Source of the DNA: Escherichia phage MN04
DNA: 64,000 nt
Direction: 5' to 3' (one strand)
Sequence record: MT129654.1
A program made the position numbers and the translations under genes. Shown piece by piece: positions 993 through 61,805 of this stretch (position 1 is its first letter; each line of letters starts with the position of its first letter). The notes beneath the pieces are model-generated. The model made no database searches. It saw nothing but the letters and a program-made list of their open reading frames with translations, and was not told the DNA's origin.

Positions 993-1562
993 ATGAACAT
1001 CGAACAAAAATGTCTTTATCAAGACCGAATCAATTCCAAATTTTCAAAATCTGAACAAGCGTTGTTAGAGAAATGTCTGGATGCCAAAAAAGACCCTAAC
1101 TTCCATTACGACCTAGACAAACTGGTTCGTAAGCATGTCACTTCAGTGGTTCCGGTAGAGCTTTATCGTGGGATTACCACCAGAGAACTTGGGCAATTAG
1201 AGCTCCTTTCAGTAGGATGTCAATGGTCTCCTGGCCGGGTTACTTCTTTTAGTACACAATACTCTCAGGCTTGCCAGTTCGCAGGGTCATGGGAATATGG
1301 AACCAAAACCATTTTAAGTCTCAGGAATGCACCCTTCATTTTTGACTACTACAATCATGCTATCGACCTTGTTCTTGCAGGGAGTGCGGACGAACTTGAA
1401 ATAGATGAAACCCGTATTGACCTCTATGATATGGTCGAAACCGAATGTGAGTTCATGGTCTCTAGCCTATCACGATTTGAGATTGTTGAAATCGAAACTA
1501 TCAAAAGAGACCCATACGACATCGAGTACAAAATAATTCATTTAAAAATGTTGGATTTTTAG
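993..1562 (+). CDS. modB: Mono-ADP-ribosyltransferase, ModA/ModB family (ModB position by synteny)
   Basis: 189 aa; ART triad pattern LYRGI ... TSFST ... ECEFMV (R / S-x-S / E-x-E); tandem with a second ART upstream of srd-dda as in T4. Confidence 0.55.
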   Translation: MNIEQKCLYQDRINSKFSKSEQALLEKCLDAKKDPNFHYDLDKLVRKHVTSVVPVELYRGITTRELGQLELLSVGCQWSPGRVTSFSTQYSQACQFAGSWEYGTKTILSLRNAPFIFDYYNHAIDLVLAGSADELEIDETRIDLYDMVETECEFMVSSLSRFEIVEIETIKRDPYDIEYKIIHLKMLDF

Positions 1563-1616: not shown

Positions 1617-2231
1617 ATGTTATATCCAAGCCATAAATTAGCAGAATTTATCAACAATGCCAAATGCGACGATTTCCGTGAGAATACCCAGATAGAAATT
1701 GATGAGGTGTATTCTGATTTAGAACAGAGCACGCTCTGGCAGTGTATGGAAAATAAACCTGATTCTATCCAGGAAACTCTGAACAAAATTATTCGTAAGA
1801 ACCTGACTTCTGTAGTGCCTGATAAGCTCTATCGCGGTATATCTAAAAAGACCCTGAAGTATCTAGAGTCCACAATGTGTGTGGGTGCGGTAATTGAATT
1901 CGACCGCGTGATGAGCTTCTCTAAAGACTTCAACGTAGCAAGGAATTTCGCATCTTATAACTTCTACGGCACATTTAATATCTTTTGTATTAATGATGCG
2001 CCATTTGTGTACAATTATCAGGAAGAAATCTTTAAAATGTTATGTGCTGCGCCCCCTGAAGAGTTCCCAGGCGCATTTCCTGAATCTACACGTGTAGCAA
2101 ACTTACAATTAATTAATGATGAAGATGAGATGATGTTCCCTGCGGGAACTACGCTGCGCGTAGACTCTATTGAGAGAAATCCTAAATGGAATAATTACAC
2201 CATTTGGAATCTTTCCGTTCTTTCTTACTGA
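1617..2231 (+). CDS. modA: Mono-ADP-ribosyltransferase, ModA/ModB family (ModA position by synteny)
   Basis: 204 aa; LYRGIS ... MSFSKDF ... EDEMMFPAG triad pattern; tandem paralog of the preceding ORF. Confidence 0.55.
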   Translation: MLYPSHKLAEFINNAKCDDFRENTQIEIDEVYSDLEQSTLWQCMENKPDSIQETLNKIIRKNLTSVVPDKLYRGISKKTLKYLESTMCVGAVIEFDRVMSFSKDFNVARNFASYNFYGTFNIFCINDAPFVYNYQEEIFKMLCAAPPEEFPGAFPESTRVANLQLINDEDEMMFPAGTTLRVDSIERNPKWNNYTIWNLSVLSY

Positions 2232-5725: not shown

Positions 5726-6229
5726 ATGAAAATTTATCGAGTTGAGTCATCGTTCAGTATCTTAGATGATGGAAACGCTATCACAATACGACGAGACCTC
5801 TGTACTCAAATGACTCCGTATAGAAGTACAATGGACTCATGGAGTGAAGGCTGGTTATTGGAAGTAGGTTTCGACAGACCCAATTTTAAGCATCGTCATA
5901 CCATCAATAAAAATATTCCACTACCAAGTCAAGATAAGTTGCTGGTAGAAAATTCTAATAAAACCATTAGAACTAAGTGGAAACGGCCTGATTATGAAGA
6001 CTGTGATGATTATATTCCAGGTTGGTTTGTTAACCTCTACCATTTTGCTTTTGCCAGTGAGTATGATATGATGCGCTGGTTCACTCGTGAAGAGCGTAAA
6101 GAATTATCTTCTAAAGGATTCTATCTTGCCGTTTACGAAATACCTGAAGATGAGGTAGTCATTGGTGACCGCCAAGTAATGTTCCGCAAGTCCCATGCTG
6201 AACTCGTAGATTTTATTGAAATGAGATAA
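5726..6229 (+). CDS. Hypothetical early protein (MotB position by synteny)
   Basis: 167 aa, similar size to T4 MotB (162 aa); position dexA -> motB; no motif evidence. Confidence 0.4.
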   Translation: MKIYRVESSFSILDDGNAITIRRDLCTQMTPYRSTMDSWSEGWLLEVGFDRPNFKHRHTINKNIPLPSQDKLLVENSNKTIRTKWKRPDYEDCDDYIPGWFVNLYHFAFASEYDMMRWFTREERKELSSKGFYLAVYEIPEDEVVIGDRQVMFRKSHAELVDFIEMR

Positions 6230-6231
6230 TT

Positions 6232-6783
6232 ATGAAATTTAATTATAATCCCAAATACACACCGAACCCGGCGGCCAAATTGATTGATTTTGATGTTTTA
6301 AGCACTTATGCAGCCCCTATTGAACCATTAGAAATTAAGGAAACCACTATGACTACTCAGACTATCGAAATCGGTAAAACCTACAAACTGGTTGAACCTG
6401 AAATTAAAACTAAGGCCTTGATTTCTGGTTATAAAACTCTGACTGATGTTTTTGGCGAAGGCGAATTTATTGTTGAAGAATTCGCTAAAAGTGAGTGGTT
6501 TGACAAATCTTACGTCATCCACGGTCGCCGGTTAGATAATAACAAAATAGAGAAAAACCTGGTTTATGAAGATGAATTTGGGCTTTTCCGTGAAGTCGGA
6601 GTCGAACAAGACCCTACAGACCTGTTGTGTGCTGCTGTGGCTATCCGTCGTCCTTTTGATAATCCTATCTGTGGTTGGGTAACAGACCAGTGGATTGAAG
6701 ATGGTGTTGAACTCCTGAACGTTGTACATGCTGGTGATTTTAGCGTAGTACCTCGTAGTGCAGTGGTTAATGTATTGAATTAA
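6232..6783 (+). CDS. Hypothetical protein, paralog A of a tandem pair
   Basis: 183 aa; C-terminal block GWVTDQWIEDGVELLNVVHAGDFSVVP shared with the next ORF. Confidence 0.5.
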   Translation: MKFNYNPKYTPNPAAKLIDFDVLSTYAAPIEPLEIKETTMTTQTIEIGKTYKLVEPEIKTKALISGYKTLTDVFGEGEFIVEEFAKSEWFDKSYVIHGRRLDNNKIEKNLVYEDEFGLFREVGVEQDPTDLLCAAVAIRRPFDNPICGWVTDQWIEDGVELLNVVHAGDFSVVPRSAVVNVLN

Positions 6784-52099: not shown

Positions 52100-52348
52100 A
52101 TGAACAAACATCTGAATCACGCTCTTGAACTGCAACGCAACGCTTGGAACAACGGTCACGAAAACTACGGCGCATCTATTGATGTTGAAGCCGAAGCACT
52201 GGAAATCCTGCGTTATTTCAAACATCTTAATCCGGCTCAGGCTACTCTGGCTGCTGAATTGGAAGCAAAAGATGAACTGAAATATGCTAAGCCTTTGGCT
52301 TCAGCAGCTCGTAAAGCAGTACGTCATTTTATTATTACCCTGAAGTAA
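52100..52348 (+). CDS. rIII: rIII lysis-inhibition accessory protein
   Basis: 82 aa from ATG 52100; MNKHLNHALELQRNAWNNGHENYGASIDVEAEALEILRYFKHLNPAQ matches T4 RIII as remembered. Confidence 0.9.
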   Translation: MNKHLNHALELQRNAWNNGHENYGASIDVEAEALEILRYFKHLNPAQATLAAELEAKDELKYAKPLASAARKAVRHFIITLK

Positions 52349-52702
52349 AATCGAGGAGCCGTCGAACTGTCTGATTAATGATTTGCGAATCATTATAGTT
52401 TTAAGACCCCCGGCAGTTTTACGGTGTACCTCTTGAATGGTATTTTATAGCGGCAAGTGCATGCTACCCCGAGGTGATGGCCAATCGGGAGTACGCCTCA
52501 AGGCCTATATATCCATCAGTATATATCTTATCCTCGAGAAATCGAACCCGGAACCTTTAAGCTAACGGTGTGCAACAGATAAGAGCTATGATGACGAGGT
52601 TTACGGTTATCCTGTCGTTAAATATCTAAAACCTATGTTCCCCTTGAGGGCTTGCGCAGGCAATGCCAATAAGTCCTGCATCCTAATTTAAGAGATTTAA
52701 AA
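52349..52702. other. ORF-free, comparatively GC-rich intergenic island of unknown function
   Basis: about 350 bp with no ORF of 60 codons or more on either strand; several inverted repeats (taatgatt/aatcatta, cctcaagg/ccttgagg, gcagg/cctgc). Confidence 0.5.
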
Positions 52703-52864
52703 ATGGCTAAGAAAGAAGTTAAAGTAGTTGACGGAACCTCTAAACGCGCTGGTTACAAGCGTGCGTCTAACAAGCGTATCAATCAGGTAGTTGATAAGCT
52801 TCAAGCTCGTGCTCGTGCAGTATTGCGTGCAGATGCTGCTTGCTTCGGTAAAGTTATTGCATAA
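52703..52864 (+). CDS. Hypothetical small basic protein
   Basis: 53-aa ORF below track cutoff (MAKKEVKVVDGTSKRAGYKR...), followed by strong terminator. Confidence 0.4.
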   Translation: MAKKEVKVVDGTSKRAGYKRASNKRINQVVDKLQARARAVLRADAACFGKVIA

Positions 52865-52869
52865 GTTAT

Positions 52870-52897
52870 GGGACTCTTCGGAGTCCCATTTTTGTTT
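52870..52897 (+). terminator. Rho-independent terminator
   Basis: gggactcttcggagtccc hairpin followed by atttttgtttc. Confidence 0.75.
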
Positions 52898-52915
52898 CTA
52901 AATCTTTAAAAAAGG

Positions 52916-52944
52916 GTATACATCTCCAGTAGGCATGATACTAT
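52916..52944 (+). promoter_or_regulatory. Early promoter variant (GTATAC -35) with inverted repeat spanning the leader
   Basis: GTATAC 52916-52921, TACTAT 52939-52944; arms tctccagt / actggaga. Confidence 0.5.
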
Positions 52945-52985
52945 AGACATGTACCAAATAATACGAAAACAAACTGGAGAATAAA

Positions 52986-53318
52986 ATGAAAACTGTAAAC
53001 CTGAATGCATCTGTTAAAGCTAAATGTTTCAACGGTGAATATCAAGAAACCATGTGGGTCCTGACTGCAGTTGAAGGTGATATCATCGAAGTTGAAACAA
53101 CTGAAGGTATGGGTACTGATTTCACATTTACCATCGAGCTTCACAACTTCTTTACAGGTTGGATTTATGAACTGAAAACTGTAATTACTGGTCGTATTGA
53201 AGAAAACAAAATTGGTGAATTCTATTACGTTAATGCCCGTACACGTGCTGAACGTCTGATTGCTCAGATGAAAAAAGTTGGTAAACTTGATATGAAAAAT
53301 TGGAATGTTGTGAAATAA
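52986..53318 (+). CDS. Hypothetical protein
   Basis: 110-aa ORF. Confidence 0.45.
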   Translation: MKTVNLNASVKAKCFNGEYQETMWVLTAVEGDIIEVETTEGMGTDFTFTIELHNFFTGWIYELKTVITGRIEENKIGEFYYVNARTRAERLIAQMKKVGKLDMKNWNVVK

Positions 53319-53321
53319 ATG

Positions 53322-53350
53322 TTTTACTTTGGTACAGGTTGTGTTATTAT
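53322..53350 (+). promoter_or_regulatory. T4-type early promoter with palindrome across the -10
   Basis: TTTTAC 53322-53327, TATTAT 53345-53350 inside ggtacaggt ... acctgtacc. Confidence 0.5.
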
Positions 53351-53391
53351 AGACCTGTACCAAATAATACGAAAACAAACTGGAGAATAAA

Positions 53392-53757
53392 ATGAACTAC
53401 ATCAACTTCGAACGTAAATATGTTTCTAACGGTATCGCTGGTTCTTCTGAAGTTATTTGTCTGTGGAAACACAACAACGGCACAGTGTGCGAAATCGAAC
53501 AGTGCATGACTCCTAACTACGTTTATATGCGCTTTGAAAATGGTATCACGGTTTCAATCACTATGGAAGGTTCTACTTTTAAAATCGCTTTGGATGATGA
53601 TTTCCGTCAACGTGATTTAGGTACCCATCCTTGCTGGAACGGTGATAATCGTAAGCTTCTGGTTAAAACCTGGATTCGTCACATCCTGAGCAACCGTGCT
53701 AAACCTGAACACCTGGAAGCAATCTTTGATGTAGTTCTGAATGAATTTGATATCTAA
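53392..53757 (+). CDS. Hypothetical protein
   Basis: 121-aa ORF with leader identical to that of the 52986 ORF. Confidence 0.45.
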   Translation: MNYINFERKYVSNGIAGSSEVICLWKHNNGTVCEIEQCMTPNYVYMRFENGITVSITMEGSTFKIALDDDFRQRDLGTHPCWNGDNRKLLVKTWIRHILSNRAKPEHLEAIFDVVLNEFDI

Positions 53758-53798
53758 TCTTAAAAATGGAGGCTTCTGCCTCCTTTGAGGAAAATATT

Positions 53799-54086
53799 AT
53801 GTTTATGACCACTTATTTCGATACTCGTAAAAATTTCTGTGAAGTTGTCTTCTCTAAGGCAGGTAAAGATGTTCCTGCTGACAAACAGCCTACTCGTGAA
53901 TCCATTAAGGCCTATGCTGATGTGGTTTGTCCAGTAGAATTCCGTACAGTCAATGGTCGTGACACCCTAGCAATCACTAAGCTCAACCGCGATATTAACA
54001 TCGACCCAAGTGTCGCCCGCGAAGTCAATACTTCTGACATCTACGGCGGTAATGTTAAATCACATGGATTCCAGATGAGGTTCTAA
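53799..54086 (+). CDS. Hypothetical protein
   Basis: 95-aa ORF from ATG 53799 preceded by ttgaggaaaatattatg. Confidence 0.4.
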   Translation: MFMTTYFDTRKNFCEVVFSKAGKDVPADKQPTRESIKAYADVVCPVEFRTVNGRDTLAITKLNRDINIDPSVAREVNTSDIYGGNVKSHGFQMRF

Positions 54087-54280
54087 TGCAACTATTCTTA
54101 TCACAAACCGTTCAGTTAAAAGGTGTAGGTATTCCTGGTATGATTTCAAAGGTTTTACCTGCTTTTAAATTGGGTAATGCTACTATTAAAGAAGCCTACA
54201 CGGTCCTATGGGTCGATGGCACTGAAGACGTTCGCATGGGTTCTGAATTGTCTGTAATCAAATGTTTGAAGCGAGGATAA
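54086..54280 (+). CDS. Hypothetical small protein
   Basis: 64-aa ORF. Confidence 0.35.
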   Translation: MQLFLSQTVQLKGVGIPGMISKVLPAFKLGNATIKEAYTVLWVDGTEDVRMGSELSVIKCLKRG

Positions 54281-54281
54281 T

Positions 54282-54497
54282 ATGGTCAAGAAACTGATTC
54301 AGAAATTGTTAGGTACGGAAATGGTTGAAGTGACTTATCGTGTGACTGATGTTTCTCCTCATACGGCGGACCATTTAGAACCTTATATCATGACAATTAA
54401 AATGCCTAAACATGACGGTGGTTTATCCATTGAAGACCGACTGCCGGGTTATGGTTATTGGGCTGATGTTGAAATTATAAGTGTCAAAGATGTCTGA
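54282..54497 (+). CDS. Hypothetical small protein
   Basis: 71-aa ORF. Confidence 0.35.
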   Translation: MVKKLIQKLLGTEMVEVTYRVTDVSPHTADHLEPYIMTIKMPKHDGGLSIEDRLPGYGYWADVEIISVKDV

Positions 54498-54948
54498 GTT
54501 AGAAATTAGAAGTAACTTTCCGTGGCCATCATGTGCATTAAGTAACTTTGCTAAATGGCCTTTCGTTATGGATGGTATCCAATTTGGTGGACTTGAAGGA
54601 TTCCTCCAAGGATGTAAGGTGAAAAATGTTGAACAACAAAGACGTATATTTAGGATGTCCGGGTTGGACGCGCAAAAAGCTGGACGAGCTTATGCTAGGG
54701 CTCAGGACCGTGGCACGTTGTTCTGGCTTGGAACCCCGTTTTCAAGATATTCCGAAGCGTGGAAAGAGCTTTACGAAAGTGCGTATTTTGAAGCAGCGCT
54801 CCAGAACAAAGGATTCCGAGAAGCTTTACAAGCCACTAAAGGTAAGGTTTTAAAGCATTCAATGGCAAGCCACCTCAAAGAATGTGATACAATACTAACT
54901 GAAAAAGAGTTTATCGACATCCTAAACAAATTGAGAGATTTATTATGA
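54481..54948 (+). CDS. NADAR / YbiA-like domain protein (candidate ADP-ribose-processing enzyme)
   Basis: 155 aa; SNFAKWPFVMDGIQF resembles the YbiA/NADAR signature SNFAAWP..VDG; identified by motif recall only. Confidence 0.45.
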   Translation: MSKMSELEIRSNFPWPSCALSNFAKWPFVMDGIQFGGLEGFLQGCKVKNVEQQRRIFRMSGLDAQKAGRAYARAQDRGTLFWLGTPFSRYSEAWKELYESAYFEAALQNKGFREALQATKGKVLKHSMASHLKECDTILTEKEFIDILNKLRDLL

Positions 54949-55583
54949 AACCAGTTATCTTAACAGATATCGATGGAGTATGTTTAAGTTGGCAGTCCGG
55001 CTTGCCTTATTTCGCACAGAAATATAATTTGCCTTTAGAACATATTTTGAATATGATTCAGGACGAACGTTTCTTATCTCCAGGTGAACTGTTTAATTGT
55101 GACGACGAATTAGGCGCACGTTTAATTGAGAAATATAATCAGTCGGATTTTATTCGTTATCTGTCCCCTTACATGGACGCATTAAAACACATCAACAAGC
55201 TCAAAAAAGACTTCGATTTTGTAGCCGTGACTGCGCTAGGCGACTCAATTGATGCCCTGCTGAATAGACAATTCAATTTGAATGCTTTGTTCCCTGGCGC
55301 ATTCAAGGAGATTCTGATGTGTGGTCATTCAGAATCAAAAGAAGACCTGTTCATAAGAGCTAAAAATACGTACGGCAAACGCATTAAGTTTTATGTTGAC
55401 GATTTGGCTCACCACTGTGATGCTGCATCTAATATTCTCATGGATATCCAAGTTTATTGGTTAGCCCGTGGTGAACGCGACTTTAAACCTAATTTAGCCG
55501 TAAAGGTTAATTCATGGGACGATATCGCAGCAATCGAATCCCTTCGTAATAATGCAGCCGTTGAATGGATTGCACGAGGTTAA
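54945..55583 (+). CDS. HAD-superfamily hydrolase (nucleotidase-like)
   Basis: 212 aa; N-terminal HAD motif I ILTDIDGV and C-terminal YVDD acidic motif. Confidence 0.5.
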   Translation: MKPVILTDIDGVCLSWQSGLPYFAQKYNLPLEHILNMIQDERFLSPGELFNCDDELGARLIEKYNQSDFIRYLSPYMDALKHINKLKKDFDFVAVTALGDSIDALLNRQFNLNALFPGAFKEILMCGHSESKEDLFIRAKNTYGKRIKFYVDDLAHHCDAASNILMDIQVYWLARGERDFKPNLAVKVNSWDDIAAIESLRNNAAVEWIARG

Positions 55584-55584
55584 T

Positions 55585-55848
55585 ATGTTTGTTGTTCATA
55601 CTATTACTGATGGAATCCCTAAATCCCATGATTATGGAAACTTTAGACAATTCCTTCGATTGAATCCTGTATATTTCCAAGCCAAAGATGAAGATATCTT
55701 TATCCAATGTGTTCGGCGTGGATTTATGTATGTTACTGAATATGATATTAAAGATAAGCGTATTATATCGTATCACAAAACTTTAAATGAGCTTTTAGAT
55801 GAAGTAGCTTATAATAGAAGTACACAAACTGTAAGGACGGTAAAATGA
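55585..55848 (+). CDS. Hypothetical protein
   Basis: 87-aa ORF from ATG 55585. Confidence 0.4.
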   Translation: MFVVHTITDGIPKSHDYGNFRQFLRLNPVYFQAKDEDIFIQCVRRGFMYVTEYDIKDKRIISYHKTLNELLDEVAYNRSTQTVRTVK

Positions 55849-57368
55849 TTTTAGATATTTTAAACGAAATTGCTTCTATTGATTCTACTAAAGCTAAAGA
55901 AGCTATTATTGCTCGTGAAAAGGATAACGAGCTTCTGAAACGTGTATATCGTATGGCTTATACCCGTCGTTTGAACTATGGTATTAAAAAGTGGCCAGAA
56001 CCTGGATTTACGTCTCAATCCTTTGGTATGATTACACTTGAAGACCTTCTTGATTTCGCTGAGTTCACATTAGCCACCCGTAAGATTACGGGTAATGCTG
56101 CTATTGAAGAGCTTGCTCAAATTATTGCTGATGCTAAGGGTCCTGACGCTGAGGTATTACGTCGCGTAATGATGCGTGACCTTGAATGTGGTGCATCGAT
56201 TTCTATTGCTAACAAGGTTTGGAAAGGTTTAATCCCTGAACAACCTCAAATGTTGGCTAGTTCTTATGATGAAGATTTGATTAAGAAAAATATTAAATGG
56301 CCTGCGTTCGCCCAATTAAAAGCTGACGGCGCCCGTTGTTTTGCTGAAGTTCGTAACGATGGCGTAACATTCCTTACTCGTGGTGGTAATGAATACCAAG
56401 GGCTTAATCTTTTGGCGGCTGAATTAATGGCCATGACCGAAGAAGCTCGACAGCGCCATCCTAATGGTGTTATGATTGATGGCGAATTAGTTTACCACAC
56501 TCCTAAAGTAGAACCTAAAGCATCTAATGATTTGTTTAGTATGTTTGATGAGGAACTTCCTGAATTAAGTAAAGCCAAGGAATTCCAAACCGTAGCCGAT
56601 CGTTCTACTTCAAACGGGTTGGCTAACAAGGCTCTTCAAGGAACTATTACTCCAACCGAAGCAGCAGGTATGGTGTTACAGGCGTGGGATTATGTCCCAT
56701 TGGATGTCGTATATTCCGAAGGTAAAATTAAAGGCGATAAGTATGATGTACGCTTTGCAGCCTTAGAACTTATGGTTGCTCATAATGTCGTATTGCATGG
56801 TACAACGCGTGTTGAAGCTATCGAAAACCAATGGGTTAATAATCTTGACGAAGCTAAAGTCGTTTATAAGAAATATGTCGACCAAGGCCTGGAAGGTATT
56901 ATCCTTAAGAACATGGACTCCTACTGGGAAAACCGCCGTTCTAAGAATCTTATCAAGTTCAAAGAAGTAATCGATATCGCTTTAGAAGTGGTAGGTTATT
57001 ATGAACACTCGAAGGACCCAAACAAACTTGGTGGTGTCGAGCTAGTATCACGGTGTCGTCGAATTACATCTGACTGTGGTTCAGGCTTTAAAGATACTAC
57101 CCATAAGAAAGATAAATCAGGTAAAAAGGTATTGATTCCATTAGAAGACCGTCCTGATTTAGACCGTGAACTTCTTATGAAACAAGCCCGTGAAGGTAAA
57201 TTGATTGGACGTATTGCTGACTGTGAATGTAATGGTTGGGTTCATTCTAAAGGACGTACTGATACTGTAGGTATTTTCCTTCCAATTATTAAAGGTTGGC
57301 GTTTCGATAAAACAGAAGCTGATACATTTGAAGATGTATTTGGTGATTGGTCTCAAACTGGACTATAA
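55845..57368 (+). CDS. 30: ATP-dependent DNA ligase
   Basis: 507 aa; adenylation motif KADGAR; N-terminus MILDILNEIASIDSTKAK and motif-VI region matching T4 ligase as remembered. Confidence 0.93.
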   Translation: MILDILNEIASIDSTKAKEAIIAREKDNELLKRVYRMAYTRRLNYGIKKWPEPGFTSQSFGMITLEDLLDFAEFTLATRKITGNAAIEELAQIIADAKGPDAEVLRRVMMRDLECGASISIANKVWKGLIPEQPQMLASSYDEDLIKKNIKWPAFAQLKADGARCFAEVRNDGVTFLTRGGNEYQGLNLLAAELMAMTEEARQRHPNGVMIDGELVYHTPKVEPKASNDLFSMFDEELPELSKAKEFQTVADRSTSNGLANKALQGTITPTEAAGMVLQAWDYVPLDVVYSEGKIKGDKYDVRFAALELMVAHNVVLHGTTRVEAIENQWVNNLDEAKVVYKKYVDQGLEGIILKNMDSYWENRRSKNLIKFKEVIDIALEVVGYYEHSKDPNKLGGVELVSRCRRITSDCGSGFKDTTHKKDKSGKKVLIPLEDRPDLDRELLMKQAREGKLIGRIADCECNGWVHSKGRTDTVGIFLPIIKGWRFDKTEADTFEDVFGDWSQTGL

Positions 57369-57369
57369 T

Positions 57370-57540
57370 ATGAAAGCTTATTTAGAAACAATTGTTGTAA
57401 CAAACGCAAATAACACTGCGGCCTCTCAAATCATCCTAGAGTTTGAGGATGAAATAGCTTTTGCCGATTTTAAAGACGTGTTTGACGGCTATGAAAAAGG
57501 CCCGACATTCGAAGTATATCGTACGTTGCTACCACTTTAA
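57370..57540 (+). CDS. Hypothetical small protein
   Basis: 56-aa ORF from ATG 57370. Confidence 0.3.
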   Translation: MKAYLETIVVTNANNTAASQIILEFEDEIAFADFKDVFDGYEKGPTFEVYRTLLPL

Positions 57541-57558
57541 GGCCTTCGGGCCTTTTAT
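57539..57558 (+). terminator. Rho-independent terminator
   Basis: aaggccttcgggcctt hairpin followed by ttat. Confidence 0.6.
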
Positions 57559-57590
57559 GGCATAAATACGGTTATTAAAGAGGAATTATT

Positions 57591-59678
57591 ATGACCGAAC
57601 AATTAAATGAAGTGTTTGAGTCCGAAGGCACCCTGCCTACTGTAAACTTAAACCCAAAACTTAAAGTACCCCAGATTTGGAAGATTGGCGACGCCGAATC
57701 CCAATTAGTTGCTCGTATGGTATCTTATGCCTCTGAAGGCGATGCTATTAAACAGGTTAAATTAGGTGATAAATATGCCCACGTTATTTTGATGAGTTTA
57801 TCAGCTAAAGGTACTCCAGCCGAACTTAAAGGTGGATTAGGCCCTACTCCTATTGATGCTATTAATACCATTTTCGACGTAGTATTCGAACAAGTTAAAA
57901 AGCTTCGTATGGATGCTGTGATGTTCCGTTTTCCAACCAAGAAAATGAAAGGACAAGGACCTATTGTCCAACGGATTATCCAACGTTTGGTAGCACAGAA
58001 AACCGGTGGACGTTTTAAAGTAGTTCCAGCCATGTACCAATTTACCGGTAAACATACTTATATCCTAGTAGTTCGTAAACAAGCTGATATCGAAGATATC
58101 AAAGGTATGCCTGGAATTAATGCCGAATTATATACTAAGGTAGATTCTGATGTTGGTGAAGTTTATATTTCTAAAAAAGAAGGCGCTCAGGTTACTAAAG
58201 AAACCGCTATTGCCGGCAGTATTGCTAAAGTTGAAGAACGTCGCACTGATAAAATGGTTATAACCAAGACTAAGATTTCTCGTCGTGCGATTGCGGCAAG
58301 CCAGTCATTAGAAGCAGACCGTAATGAAGGTGAATTATTTCAGAAATATGAACAAACTGCCAATGAGTTCAGTGCGCCTGCTACGGCGGAATTAATTCCA
58401 CAAGCAGCCGAAGTTGAATTATCATTATCATCCGAAACAGCTAAGGATAAGCTGGCTACGGCTATTGATTTTAAAATTTATAATACTATGGATGATTCAT
58501 TTAAATTTGCGGATGAAGTTTCTTACGGTGATAAAATTAACTCTTCTTTAGAAAAATTTGTCAAAAAAATTAAAAATGAAAAAACCACGTCAGTTAAAGC
58601 TTTAGCCGCCTTTGTTGAAGCTGCTAATGAAATCGCAGAATCTATTAAAAGTGATTGGTTTGAAGATTATAGAAAAGACAATTTCCATTTGGAAAAAGAG
58701 ATATTGAATGAAAACAGTGAAAGAGTATGGAAACAACGTAAGTCTTCATTCTTGTCTAAGATAATGTATACATACGCTATAGAATCAACTAGAGAAATTC
58801 TTAATATAACAACATCTCGAGACCCTAAACAATATACACTTGCAGAAAAACGAGCTATCAGAGAATACGCCTCTTCAGCTTATATTGATATTAACAATGT
58901 CCTTCTTGGCCGTTATAAACCGGGCTTTTATGAAGTTTTGGACGAAAGCGAAGTTAAACGTGCTATTGATGGAATGGATTCTGCCTTTAAAAATGGTGAC
59001 CGTTTACCTGAAGGAATAATGGTTTATAGAGCACAATCTTTGCGCGCGCCTATCTACGAAGCATTAGTTAAAAATAAGGTATTCTATTTTAGAAACTATG
59101 TTTCAACCTCATTGGCTCCAATCATTTTTGGTGGCTTTAAAGAGAATGCGGCTATTGGTCTTGCTTCCGATGATGTTCGAAAAGAATTAAACATTGATAA
59201 TAATGACGAAGGCGTTACCATCTCTGCTAGTCAAGTGCGTACACATATGTATGCGCCGGATCAAATCCGTGTTGATGTTGGCTGGGCTATTAGTGGCGCT
59301 CATAAGGTTAACGTGATTTATCCTGGCCAATTAAGCATGCATGCCAACGAAAAGGAAATAATTTTACCACGCGGGCTACTTGTAAAAATAGATAAAATCG
59401 TGGATGCATCAGCCAATACTGGTTCTGGGGCGGTTTCTAACAATAAATTTATTCAAGCTGAAGTTATGACATCAGATGAGCTTCAAGAATCTGTAGTGTA
59501 TGATGGTGACGTACTAATGGAAACCGGTGAGTTGGTCGTATACCAAGATGACTTCGATACTTCCGAAAGCCCTGTATCTTTTGATTCATTTGTTAAATCT
59601 ACACGGTTTGACGTACTGCCTCTTTTGGCTTCATGCATAGACCTCTATGGCATACCAGAAAAATTCATCCAAGGGTAA
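57591..59678 (+). CDS. alt: Alt-type ADP-ribosyltransferase (virion-injected), copy 1
   Basis: 695 aa (T4 Alt 682 aa); C-terminal ART pattern MVYRAQ ... YVSTSL ... EKEIILPRG; position downstream of ligase as in T4. Confidence 0.8.
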   Translation: MTEQLNEVFESEGTLPTVNLNPKLKVPQIWKIGDAESQLVARMVSYASEGDAIKQVKLGDKYAHVILMSLSAKGTPAELKGGLGPTPIDAINTIFDVVFEQVKKLRMDAVMFRFPTKKMKGQGPIVQRIIQRLVAQKTGGRFKVVPAMYQFTGKHTYILVVRKQADIEDIKGMPGINAELYTKVDSDVGEVYISKKEGAQVTKETAIAGSIAKVEERRTDKMVITKTKISRRAIAASQSLEADRNEGELFQKYEQTANEFSAPATAELIPQAAEVELSLSSETAKDKLATAIDFKIYNTMDDSFKFADEVSYGDKINSSLEKFVKKIKNEKTTSVKALAAFVEAANEIAESIKSDWFEDYRKDNFHLEKEILNENSERVWKQRKSSFLSKIMYTYAIESTREILNITTSRDPKQYTLAEKRAIREYASSAYIDINNVLLGRYKPGFYEVLDESEVKRAIDGMDSAFKNGDRLPEGIMVYRAQSLRAPIYEALVKNKVFYFRNYVSTSLAPIIFGGFKENAAIGLASDDVRKELNIDNNDEGVTISASQVRTHMYAPDQIRVDVGWAISGAHKVNVIYPGQLSMHANEKEIILPRGLLVKIDKIVDASANTGSGAVSNNKFIQAEVMTSDELQESVVYDGDVLMETGELVVYQDDFDTSESPVSFDSFVKSTRFDVLPLLASCIDLYGIPEKFIQG

Positions 59679-59681
59679 ATA

Positions 59682-61805
59682 ATGGAAAATTTAAACGAAG
59701 TTTTTGATAGTGATTCCGCTAAAAACTATCCAGTAACAAATCTTAAGCCGGGCTCCGGTATCCCACAGATTTTCTCTATCCAAGCACCAGGTAACGATAA
59801 CCTGGTTGCTCGTATGGTATCTTATGCGTCTCAAGGAGACGCTATTAAAATGGTTAAGCCAGGCGACAAATATGTCCATGTTATTTTAATGAGTTTGTCG
59901 AGCAAGGGTGCTCCAGCCGAACTCAAAGGTGGTCTTGGTTCCGACCCACTTGGTGCATTGAATACTATTTTTGATACGATATACGAACAAGTAAATAAAC
60001 TTAAAATGGATGCGGTTTTGTTCCGTTTCCCTACCAAGAAAATGAAAGGTAAGGGCCCTACTGTTCAGCGTGTATTAGCTCGTTTGGCGATGGCACGTAC
60101 CGGTGGTAAGTTTAAAGTTGTCGATGATATGTTCCAGTTTAGTGGTAAACATACATACGTTCTTTTAGCACGTCGTGGCACTAATATCGAAGATATCAAG
60201 GGTATGCCTGAAATTGATGCGGACCTTTATACCAAGGTTGAGTCTAAAGTCGGTGAAGTTTATGTTTCTAAGAAAACCGGCCAGGCCGTAAGTAAGGTCG
60301 AAGCCGTAGCGGCATCTATTGCACAGGTTGAAGAGAAACGTACCGATAAGGCTGTTATCTCTCGTACTAAAATTTCCCGTCGTATGGCTGCAGCAGCGCA
60401 GTATTCTACTGCCGAACCTGAAACTTTATCACCTAAAGAATTGCAGGTTTATAACGAGTTTGAAGCTTCTGTCCCTGTTCACTCGGCCGAAGGCCCTGAG
60501 AACGAAGGTATTGAGCAGATTAGTCAGAACTTTAAAAAAGGTGCTATTACTAAAATGCGTCAGGCCTCTCAGTTTAAATCTAAGAGTGAGGACCTTGCCA
60601 ACTTTAGATACACCATTGCTCTCACGCACGCTTTAATGACTGATAGTAAATTTAAACTAAATTATGCTAATAGAGATAAACAAGGGTTTGAAATTTACTC
60701 TAATAATATGGCATTTTTTAATACGGAAGTCGATAGACTTTTAAGTGGCCTTTCTCAAATCAATACTACCAATAGTCTGGATATTATTAAGAGAATTGTT
60801 AATAACCTGAGTGCCCGTTTTCAGGGGTCTCCTTCAGAGAAAGCATCCCGAATTGCTTTCGCTATGGAAGCCGTTTATAAACTGATTAACGATTCTATTA
60901 GCGATGCATATGCTTATTCAGGCGAGCTCATTAAACCTAAGGGCTTGACCAAAGACGAAAGTAATGCCATTATTGAATATTGTGCGGCTGAATATGCTCC
61001 TATGAACTTATTCCTTTTAGGTAAACCTGAATCCGAAAACAATACAACAGCTATTAAATTGATTAAGGATTTAGACTCAGCATTTACCAAGGGTATTAAA
61101 CTTCCTAAGGGTACTATTTTGTATCGTGGTCAGGATTTACCATACAAAATTCTGCGCCATAATATTGATAACAAAACATTTTACTTTAAGAACTTTGTGT
61201 CCGCTTCATTAAAGCCTAATATCTTTGGCGAATTTGGTAAAAATTATATGGCCCTCGACAACCAAGCAGTTTTTGTTGGCGATGAAGGTTCTTTATCCTC
61301 CGCTGATGAGTTGTTTAAATTAGCCAGTGGTAGTTCATCTGATGTAGGCGAAGTTGATGATGAAGAGGTAGAATGGGAAGAAGACGAGTTCGGTAATCCA
61401 ATTGCACCTGAAGGCCCTGCAGACAGGATTGCTGAAATCGGTATGGTTATTCGAGGTGCTGAAGCAGTTAAAGTTATCGCTCCTGGTGACCTTACAGAAT
61501 ATTCCGAAGAAGCAGAAATTATCCTTCCGCGAGGATTATTGTTGAAGGTTGATAAAGTAGCGGCTTTTGCTATGAATGATAGAGTATCTCACAAATACCT
61601 TATGGAAGCTACAGTGACATCTCCTTCAGAACTCAGTGGGTCCGTTTACGATGGTGACCATCTGATGGAAACCGGTGAAGTTAAATTGATGAATGGGTTT
61701 AAAGAATTCCTAGTTTCAGAATCTGTTTCAGAAAGTAATGAGGCTATGGAAATCCTTGCTGCATCTTTGGACATCTCTTCTTTACCAAATAAATTCAAAA
61801 TGTAG
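59682..61805 (+). CDS. Alt-type ADP-ribosyltransferase, copy 2 (tandem paralog)
   Basis: 707 aa; N-terminal ~230 aa near-collinear with copy 1; C-terminal ILYRGQ ... FVSASL ... EAEIILPRG. Confidence 0.75.
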   Translation: MENLNEVFDSDSAKNYPVTNLKPGSGIPQIFSIQAPGNDNLVARMVSYASQGDAIKMVKPGDKYVHVILMSLSSKGAPAELKGGLGSDPLGALNTIFDTIYEQVNKLKMDAVLFRFPTKKMKGKGPTVQRVLARLAMARTGGKFKVVDDMFQFSGKHTYVLLARRGTNIEDIKGMPEIDADLYTKVESKVGEVYVSKKTGQAVSKVEAVAASIAQVEEKRTDKAVISRTKISRRMAAAAQYSTAEPETLSPKELQVYNEFEASVPVHSAEGPENEGIEQISQNFKKGAITKMRQASQFKSKSEDLANFRYTIALTHALMTDSKFKLNYANRDKQGFEIYSNNMAFFNTEVDRLLSGLSQINTTNSLDIIKRIVNNLSARFQGSPSEKASRIAFAMEAVYKLINDSISDAYAYSGELIKPKGLTKDESNAIIEYCAAEYAPMNLFLLGKPESENNTTAIKLIKDLDSAFTKGIKLPKGTILYRGQDLPYKILRHNIDNKTFYFKNFVSASLKPNIFGEFGKNYMALDNQAVFVGDEGSLSSADELFKLASGSSSDVGEVDDEEVEWEEDEFGNPIAPEGPADRIAEIGMVIRGAEAVKVIAPGDLTEYSEEAEIILPRGLLLKVDKVAAFAMNDRVSHKYLMEATVTSPSELSGSVYDGDHLMETGEVKLMNGFKEFLVSESVSESNEAMEILAASLDISSLPNKFKM

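Follow-up and report, generated by a model that had tools for sequence, protein, structure and literature searches.

The window analyzed here is a 64,000-nucleotide (nt) stretch of Escherichia phage MN04 (sequence record MT129654.1), in which two open reading frames (ORFs) follow each other on the plus strand, one at 54481..54948 with 155 amino acids (aa) if started at a GTG, and a second one at 54945..55583 with 212 aa. A first-pass annotation, made by reading the letters alone, had described them as a NADAR/YbiA-like protein, possibly a counter-defense factor against DarT-type toxins, next to a HAD hydrolase. The stretch is a segment of a T4-type myovirus of the JS98/NC-G-like kind (genus Dhakavirus, Tevenvirinae): between 53300 and 56000 it shows 99.1 to 99.3% DNA identity to Escherichia phages NC-G and JS98, and the proteins from both ORFs are 100% identical to gp30.3 and gp30.2 of JS98. 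Taking the evidence as a whole, we consider it very probable that the gene between 54490 and 54948 is the Dhakavirus orthologue of adfN, whose product acts against DarTG1, and that its neighbor encodes an NT5C-like HAD phosphatase that is dispensable there.

Using the annotation of JS98 and T4 together with tblastn synteny, we found the order 30.4 - 30.3 - 30.2 - 30.1 - 30 of the T-even cluster, which confirms the placement of the pair in the 30.x cluster. The gene order from 30.8 to alt is likewise common to this phage, JS98 and T4. The first ORF exists as proposed, but the length of 155 aa probably does not hold. We rejected GTG 54481 as the start, as it has no preceding Shine-Dalgarno sequence, and consider that ATG 54490 is most likely the start of gp30.3 (152 aa), in agreement with the JS98 and T4 annotation. 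It is also favored because its overlap with the stop of 30.4, within the last 8 nt of that gene (ATGTCTGA), is the arrangement usual for coupled genes. A GAGAG Shine-Dalgarno-like element lies upstream of the overlap between 30.3 and 30.2. Homologues of 30.3 are present in 1510 phage records, and those of 30.2 in 1437. In the comparison with T4, 30.3 gave a ratio of non-synonymous to synonymous substitution rates (dN/dS) of 0.12, and 30.2 gave proportions of non-synonymous and synonymous differences (pN and pS) of 0.13 and 0.84 (saturated). Both genes are real and under purifying selection. The coordinates of all the features are collected in Table 1.

Table 1. Genes, motifs and residues of the MN04 window discussed in the text (positions are those of the window; residues are numbered from ATG 54490 for gp30.3)
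Feature	Coordinates	Strand	Basis or remark
ModA/ModB-like ORFs, in tandem	993..1562 and 1617..2231		phrog_832
Gene 30.4, 71 aa	54282..54497	+	phrog_2042, E 6e-35
adfN (gene 30.3), 152-aa NADAR-fold DNA ADP-ribosylglycohydrolase by orthology	54490..54948	+	PF08010, JS98, T4, AF2, Foldseek
SNFAKWPFVMDGIQF, N-terminal NADAR signature, aa 18-32	54541..54585	+	Aligns to YbiA FSNFAAWPIKVDG
Glu36, catalytic glutamate	54595..54597	+	Invariant in 66 homologues; aligns with the Glu of YbiA SEHYFQ
Lys43, ADP-ribose-contacting lysine	54616..54618	+	Invariant in 66 homologues
His123, last beta-strand, clade marker in place of YbiA Glu / DarG1-type Asp	54856..54858	+	Invariant in 66 homologues
C-terminal alpha-helix, aa 138-152, intact	54901..54945	+	Model helix 138-151
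Gene 30.2, 212-aa HAD-superfamily phosphatase, NT5C-like	54945..55583	+	Start overlaps adfN stop as ATGA
HAD motif I DIDGV (Asp8 nucleophile, Asp10 acid/base)	54966..54980	+	All 61 homologues keep D8, D10 and G11
HAD motif II, Thr96	55230..55232	+	At least 90% conserved in 61 homologues
HAD motif III, Lys132	55338..55340	+	Invariant, distant relatives included
HAD motif IV, Asp152-Asp153 (Mg2+ ligands)	55398..55403	+	Both invariant in 61 homologues; D153 in distant relatives
Gene 30.1 (DUF3045)	55585..55848	+	Pfam PF11243, E 4e-19; JS98 annotation
Gene 30, ATP-dependent DNA ligase	55845..57368	+	Pfam PF01068; downstream anchor of the 30.3-30.2-30 block
Alt-like ORFs, in tandem, full-length, 695 and 707 aa	57591..59678 and 59682..61805		PF03496, phrog_802

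Regarding gp30.3, the Pfam family Phage_30_3 (PF08010) was matched over profile positions 2-138 of 138 with an E-value of 2.3e-65 (score 219 bits; cut-off 36), and phrog_652 with an E-value of 5e-52. The NADAR profile (PF08719) gave a mixed picture. There was no direct match to gp30.3 alone at E ≤ 0.1, but 15 of the 66 family members do match it (best E 1.5e-7), and the profile built from the family finds E. coli YbiA at E 0.017. The resemblance to the YbiA signature SNFAAWP..VDG, on which the NADAR call had been founded, is genuine: in a single-sequence phmmer search, exactly that stretch aligns to YbiA (2b3w), with a weak E-value of 0.78. In NCBIfam, gp30.3 was sub-threshold to TIGR02464 (ribofla_fusion, the YbiA-type N-glycosidase domain; E 0.036), and a PADLOC scan of gp30.3, gp30.2 and gp30.4 matched nothing. 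Among the 66 homologues L17, S18, N19, F20 and F25 are invariant, and in the E-x-(F/Y)-(L/F)-Q-x-x-K helix E36 and K43 align with the YbiA stretch SEHYFQAQK.

An AlphaFold2 (AF2) model of gp30.3, for which the T4 row was left out of the input, reached a predicted local distance difference test score (pLDDT) of 94.4 and a predicted template modeling score (pTM) of 0.90, with strands at residues 3-5, 25-27, 30-32, 76-79, 82-85 and 120-122 and six helices. Searched with Foldseek, this confident model retrieved only NADAR structures: YbiA 2b3w as the best match (E 1.3e-4, template modeling (TM) score 0.67), followed by PnNADAR 8bau, from Phytophthora, and GlNADAR 8bat, the DarT1-associated NADAR from Geobacter (E 0.24), while each of the remaining PDB matches had a probability of 0.06 or less. 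As for the catalytic acidic residues, E36 is present, but the second one of YbiA, in the last strand, is a histidine (His123) in gp30.3, which is the hallmark of a clade that is still active. Indeed, the gp30.3 clade is defined by a histidine replacing the last-strand catalytic Glu of YbiA or Asp of the DarG1 type (Schuller et al., Mol Cell 2023). According to the family-wide PF08719 matches, the profile comparison with YbiA, the model and the conservation of E36 and K43, gp30.3 is established as a NADAR-fold protein.

The T4 orthologue of this protein has been characterized in depth. T4 gp30.3, renamed AdfN (anti-DarT factor NADAR), is a NADAR-fold DNA ADP-ribosylglycohydrolase that strips the guanine ADP-ribose made by DarT1, and it is both required for resistance to DarTG1 and sufficient to provide it (Johannesman et al., Nat Commun 2025, PMC11825919). 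In that work, T2 and T4 without adfN formed no plaques on DarTG1 hosts, and RB69, a DarTG1-sensitive phage whose frameshifted allele has lost the C-terminal helix, was fully rescued by ectopic T4 adfN. Truncation of T4 AdfN lowered its activity, the E36A and K43A substitutions impaired it in vivo and in vitro, and the purified enzyme freed DarT1-modified DNA of ADP-ribose (PMC11825919). AdfN was ineffective against the thymine-specific DarTG2 and its full activity was restricted to T-even infection (PMC11825919), so a phage co-factor is implied. A second report showed that T4 gp30.3 hydrolyzes guanine-linked ADP-ribose in vitro and that it does not protect uninfected cells from DarT1 (PMC11125620). 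Finally, in the HIDEN-SEQ transposon screen of 2025, 30.3/adfN was non-essential on K-12, where its insertions carried no fitness cost, and essential under DarTG1. In the HIDEN-SEQ table that we took as the DarTG1 one (Data S6), by inference from the 30.3 signal and the order of the tables, insertions in T4 30.3 dropped from 261.0 to 0.7 reads per site (log2 fold change (log2FC) -7.25, adjusted p 0).

The counter-defense role proposed for the phage NADAR, reversal of DarT-type guanine ADP-ribosylation, is hence the published function of the T4 orthologue in these three sources. The call was correct, and the anti-DarTG1 function of the enzyme family was already known. Because it keeps a gapless 85% identity to T4 AdfN, the residues E36, K43 and H123 and the full C-terminal helix, gp30.3 of the window is an intact AdfN orthologue. 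By orthology with the T4/T2 allele, we infer that JS98-type gp30.3 hydrolyzes guanine-linked ADP-ribose and confers resistance to DarTG1.

In the mechanism that we propose, adfN would belong to the early or middle genes and specify a free-standing N-glycosidase of the NADAR fold. When the DarTG1 system of the host fires, DarT1 would ADP-ribosylate guanines of the phage DNA and replication would be blocked. AdfN would bind the ADP-ribose moiety via Glu36, Lys43 and the clade-specific His123, and hydrolyze the bond between guanine N2 and the ribose, with the release of ADP-ribose, leaving the DNA unmodified and letting replication proceed. It would act as an orphan mimic of a type-IV antitoxin, with the damage, and not the toxin, as its target and, like T4 AdfN, the Dhakavirus protein is probably fully active only during T-even infection. 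JS98-type phages would be expected to resist DarTG1 via AdfN, which is relevant to the choice of therapeutic T-even-like phages against E. coli bearing DarTG1. The system being already published, the biological addition made here is small. The finding also shows that reading raw sequence without tools can recover a real, recently characterized anti-defense enzyme.

The second gene had been read as a HAD hydrolase on account of its DIDGV motif, and we found all four HAD motifs conserved in gp30.2, which also matches phrog_420 with an E-value of 2.4e-70. D8 and D10 are invariant even in relatives with 20 to 31% identity. The second Asp of HAD motif I is a mark of phosphotransferases, not of dehalogenases. 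Its core is Rossmannoid and its cap is of the C1 type, inserted after motif I, as in the HAD superfamily, and the protein is a genuine HAD phosphatase. Regarding its subgroup, gp30.2 itself remained below the gathering threshold of Pfam NT5C (PF06941), with 12.9 against 24.8 bits (E 0.1), no other Pfam family matched it above threshold, and an NCBIfam search returned nothing. At E ≤ 0.01, 4 of its 61 close homologues match Pfam NT5C. An exhaustive profile search extended the family to 1192 representative clusters at E ≤ 1e-3, and 23 of 44 distant members match NT5C, with a best E-value of 4.7e-9. Searched against PDB sequences, the family profile gave cdN as its sole HAD match (E 0.18). The best reading is that of a putative NT5C-like nucleotide monophosphatase.

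In our picture, gp30.2 is a HAD phosphatase that would depend on Mg2+ and carries a helical C1 cap, and it is nearest to the NT5C-type 5'(3')-(deoxy)nucleotidases. Its most likely substrate is a nucleoside monophosphate, or some comparable small phospho-metabolite, from which the phosphate would be removed via an Asp8 phospho-enzyme intermediate. The gene belongs to the conserved 30.3-30.2-ligase block of the Straboviridae and would not be needed against DarTG1. A literature search on gp30.2 found no papers or biochemical data. The T4 copy, at 1959-2795 of the T4 locus examined, encodes 278 aa versus 212 in the JS98-type protein, and T4-type copies carry an extra C-terminal tail of ~85 aa that the JS98-type protein lacks. 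In many homologues of gp30.2, variable tails rich in Trp, Pro and Tyr extend past the HAD core.

One could argue that the conserved neighbors of adfN also take part in the defense conflict. We consider it unlikely that gp30.2, present in more than 1,400 strabovirus genomes, is itself a counter-defense or pool-editing enzyme, acting on a nucleotide-derived immune signal or on ADP-ribose breakdown products, or that 30.4 is the T-even factor that AdfN needs. Homologues of 30.4 were found only in Tevenvirinae loci (JS98 and T4, whose copies are 47% identical), and in none of the five more distant phage loci. In the same HIDEN-SEQ table, T4 30.4 insertions were mildly depleted under DarTG1 (log2FC -1.79, adjusted p 0.014). 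The simplest explanation of this depletion is polarity on adfN, whose start overlaps 30.4.

Another possibility is a two-step module made up of AdfN and gp30.2, as the first-pass annotation had suggested, in which the HAD enzyme would process the released ADP-ribose, or a fragment left after Nudix cleavage (ribose-5-phosphate, AMP), for detoxification or recycling. The genes share an ATGA overlap and are probably translationally coupled, they have similar record counts (see above) and host distributions, gp30.2 has a nucleotidase-like look, and phosphatases coupled to enzymes that release ADP-ribose are a described theme (PMC9503650). Besides, in T4, JS98 and straboviruses of Acinetobacter, Klebsiella and Aeromonas, 30.3 and 30.2 lie side by side or no more than ~500 bp apart, with DNA ligase just downstream of them. 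Yet four-base overlaps are commonplace in early regions of T4-type phages, and the whole block adjoins the DNA ligase gene, so inherited synteny could explain the pairing. In T4, 30.2 with 71 insertion sites showed no change under DarTG1 (log2FC -0.12, adjusted p 1), in contrast to the -7.25 of 30.3, and since these insertions are neutral we rejected gp30.2 as a helper of AdfN in that setting, where the coupling is contradicted. The full rescue of RB69 by adfN alone points the same way, although weakly, as RB69 has its own 30.2. Moreover, gp30.3-type NADAR proteins occur with no nearby relative of 30.2 in Rhizobium phage LG08, in Vibrio phage VS2 and in jumbo-phage-like contigs of 308-424 kb. 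A 254-aa ORF downstream of the jumbo-phage gp30.3 homologue was considered as a hidden relative of gp30.2 and discarded (hhalign probability 0.03%). As the two genes go together in Straboviridae alone, functional coupling finds no support. We consider the two-step module quite unlikely, and the best explanation for the pairing of adfN and 30.2 is synteny conserved among straboviruses.

Regarding the substrate, the YbiA-like ORF might act on riboflavin intermediates, as a housekeeping enzyme, or on soluble immune signals derived from ADP-ribose (of the cyclic ADP-ribose type), rather than on DNA adducts. The closest solved structure is indeed YbiA, the ribofla_fusion domain was weakly matched, and soluble ADP-ribose derivatives have been proposed as substrates of phage NADARs (Iyer et al. 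2022). However, both the genetic and the biochemical evidence on the T4 orthologue point to ADP-ribosylated DNA, and gp30.3 has His in place of the last-strand Glu that defines the YbiA subfamily. We consider such a role, instead of one on DNA, very improbable; the protein may have an additional activity on soluble signals.

The idea that the NADAR mainly tunes the ADP-ribosylation made by the phage itself, on host proteins or on RNA or NAD-capped substrates, started from a correct count of four ADP-ribosyltransferases in the window (two ModA/ModB-like and two Alt-like, the latter pair ~2.6 kb downstream of the NADAR gene), and it agrees with the early expression of T4-like NADARs alongside these enzymes (PMC9503650) and with the full effectiveness of T4 AdfN only in T-even infection; but nothing links the two, Alt and Mod target arginine, with another linkage chemistry, T4 30.3 is non-essential and cost-free on K-12 and essential specifically under DarTG1, and the role is unsupported and scarcely credible because every reported NADAR activity, T4 gp30.3 included, is on guanine-linked ADP-ribose in DNA.

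A promoter and terminator scan of positions 52300-57700 found 7 promoter-like sites, versus 15.7 in shuffled sequence, and nothing specific to adfN or 30.2. A strong terminator-like hairpin was detected at 52868-52889, between 30.9 and 30.8, with a 9-bp stem, five GC pairs and a T-run, and a promoter-like site lies downstream of it at 52935-52962. Hairpin and promoter-like site may mark the start of a transcription unit that carries 30.8 to 30.2.

Outside the Straboviridae, a gp30.3 homologue with 35% identity was found in Rhizobium phage LG08 (4007-4477 of the examined locus), with a DNA helicase gene directly downstream of it, and therefore the clade reaches beyond T4-like phages. A PF08010 NADAR was also found on very long contigs, among them an ENA contig of 308 kb (6001-6468 of the examined locus) and a contig of 424 kb. 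These contigs are jumbo-phage-like, with many small ORFs that have no Pfam match and with Thg1-like and NUDIX genes within 4 kb, and no HAD neighbor was found at their NADAR loci.

In comparison with known systems, the NT5C 5'(3')-deoxyribonucleotidases (cdN/mdN; 2jao, 6g2n; 3bwv) are only 14 to 18% identical to gp30.2. E. coli YbiA (2b3w), a NADAR protein and N-glycosidase of riboflavin intermediates, is the best structural match of gp30.3 and has the SNFA.WP..DG and E..(F/L)Q..K motifs in common with it, but the two proteins are 19% identical, YbiA keeps the last-strand Glu, and it is a housekeeping protein of the host. Regarding DarG1, the DarT1-associated antitoxin of the BC4488 type (Schuller et al. 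2023; 8bat), the phage protein has the same fold and, by analogy, would also hydrolyze guanine-linked ADP-ribose by acting on the modification without binding the toxin. It differs from DarG1 in having no N-terminal extension, in the last-strand His where DarG1 has Asp, and in being an orphan with no adjacent DarT; besides, the T4 enzyme fails to protect uninfected cells from DarT1. T4 AdfN remains the closest relative. The Dhakavirus protein carries 23 substitutions and comes from a genus outside the published DarTG1 assays, with no member in the BASEL collection on which the T4 study drew. As in T4, its gene lies between 30.4 and 30.2 with overlapping starts and stops, its 152 aa align without gaps, E36, K43 and H123 are kept, the C-terminal helix is intact and the predicted NADAR fold is the same.
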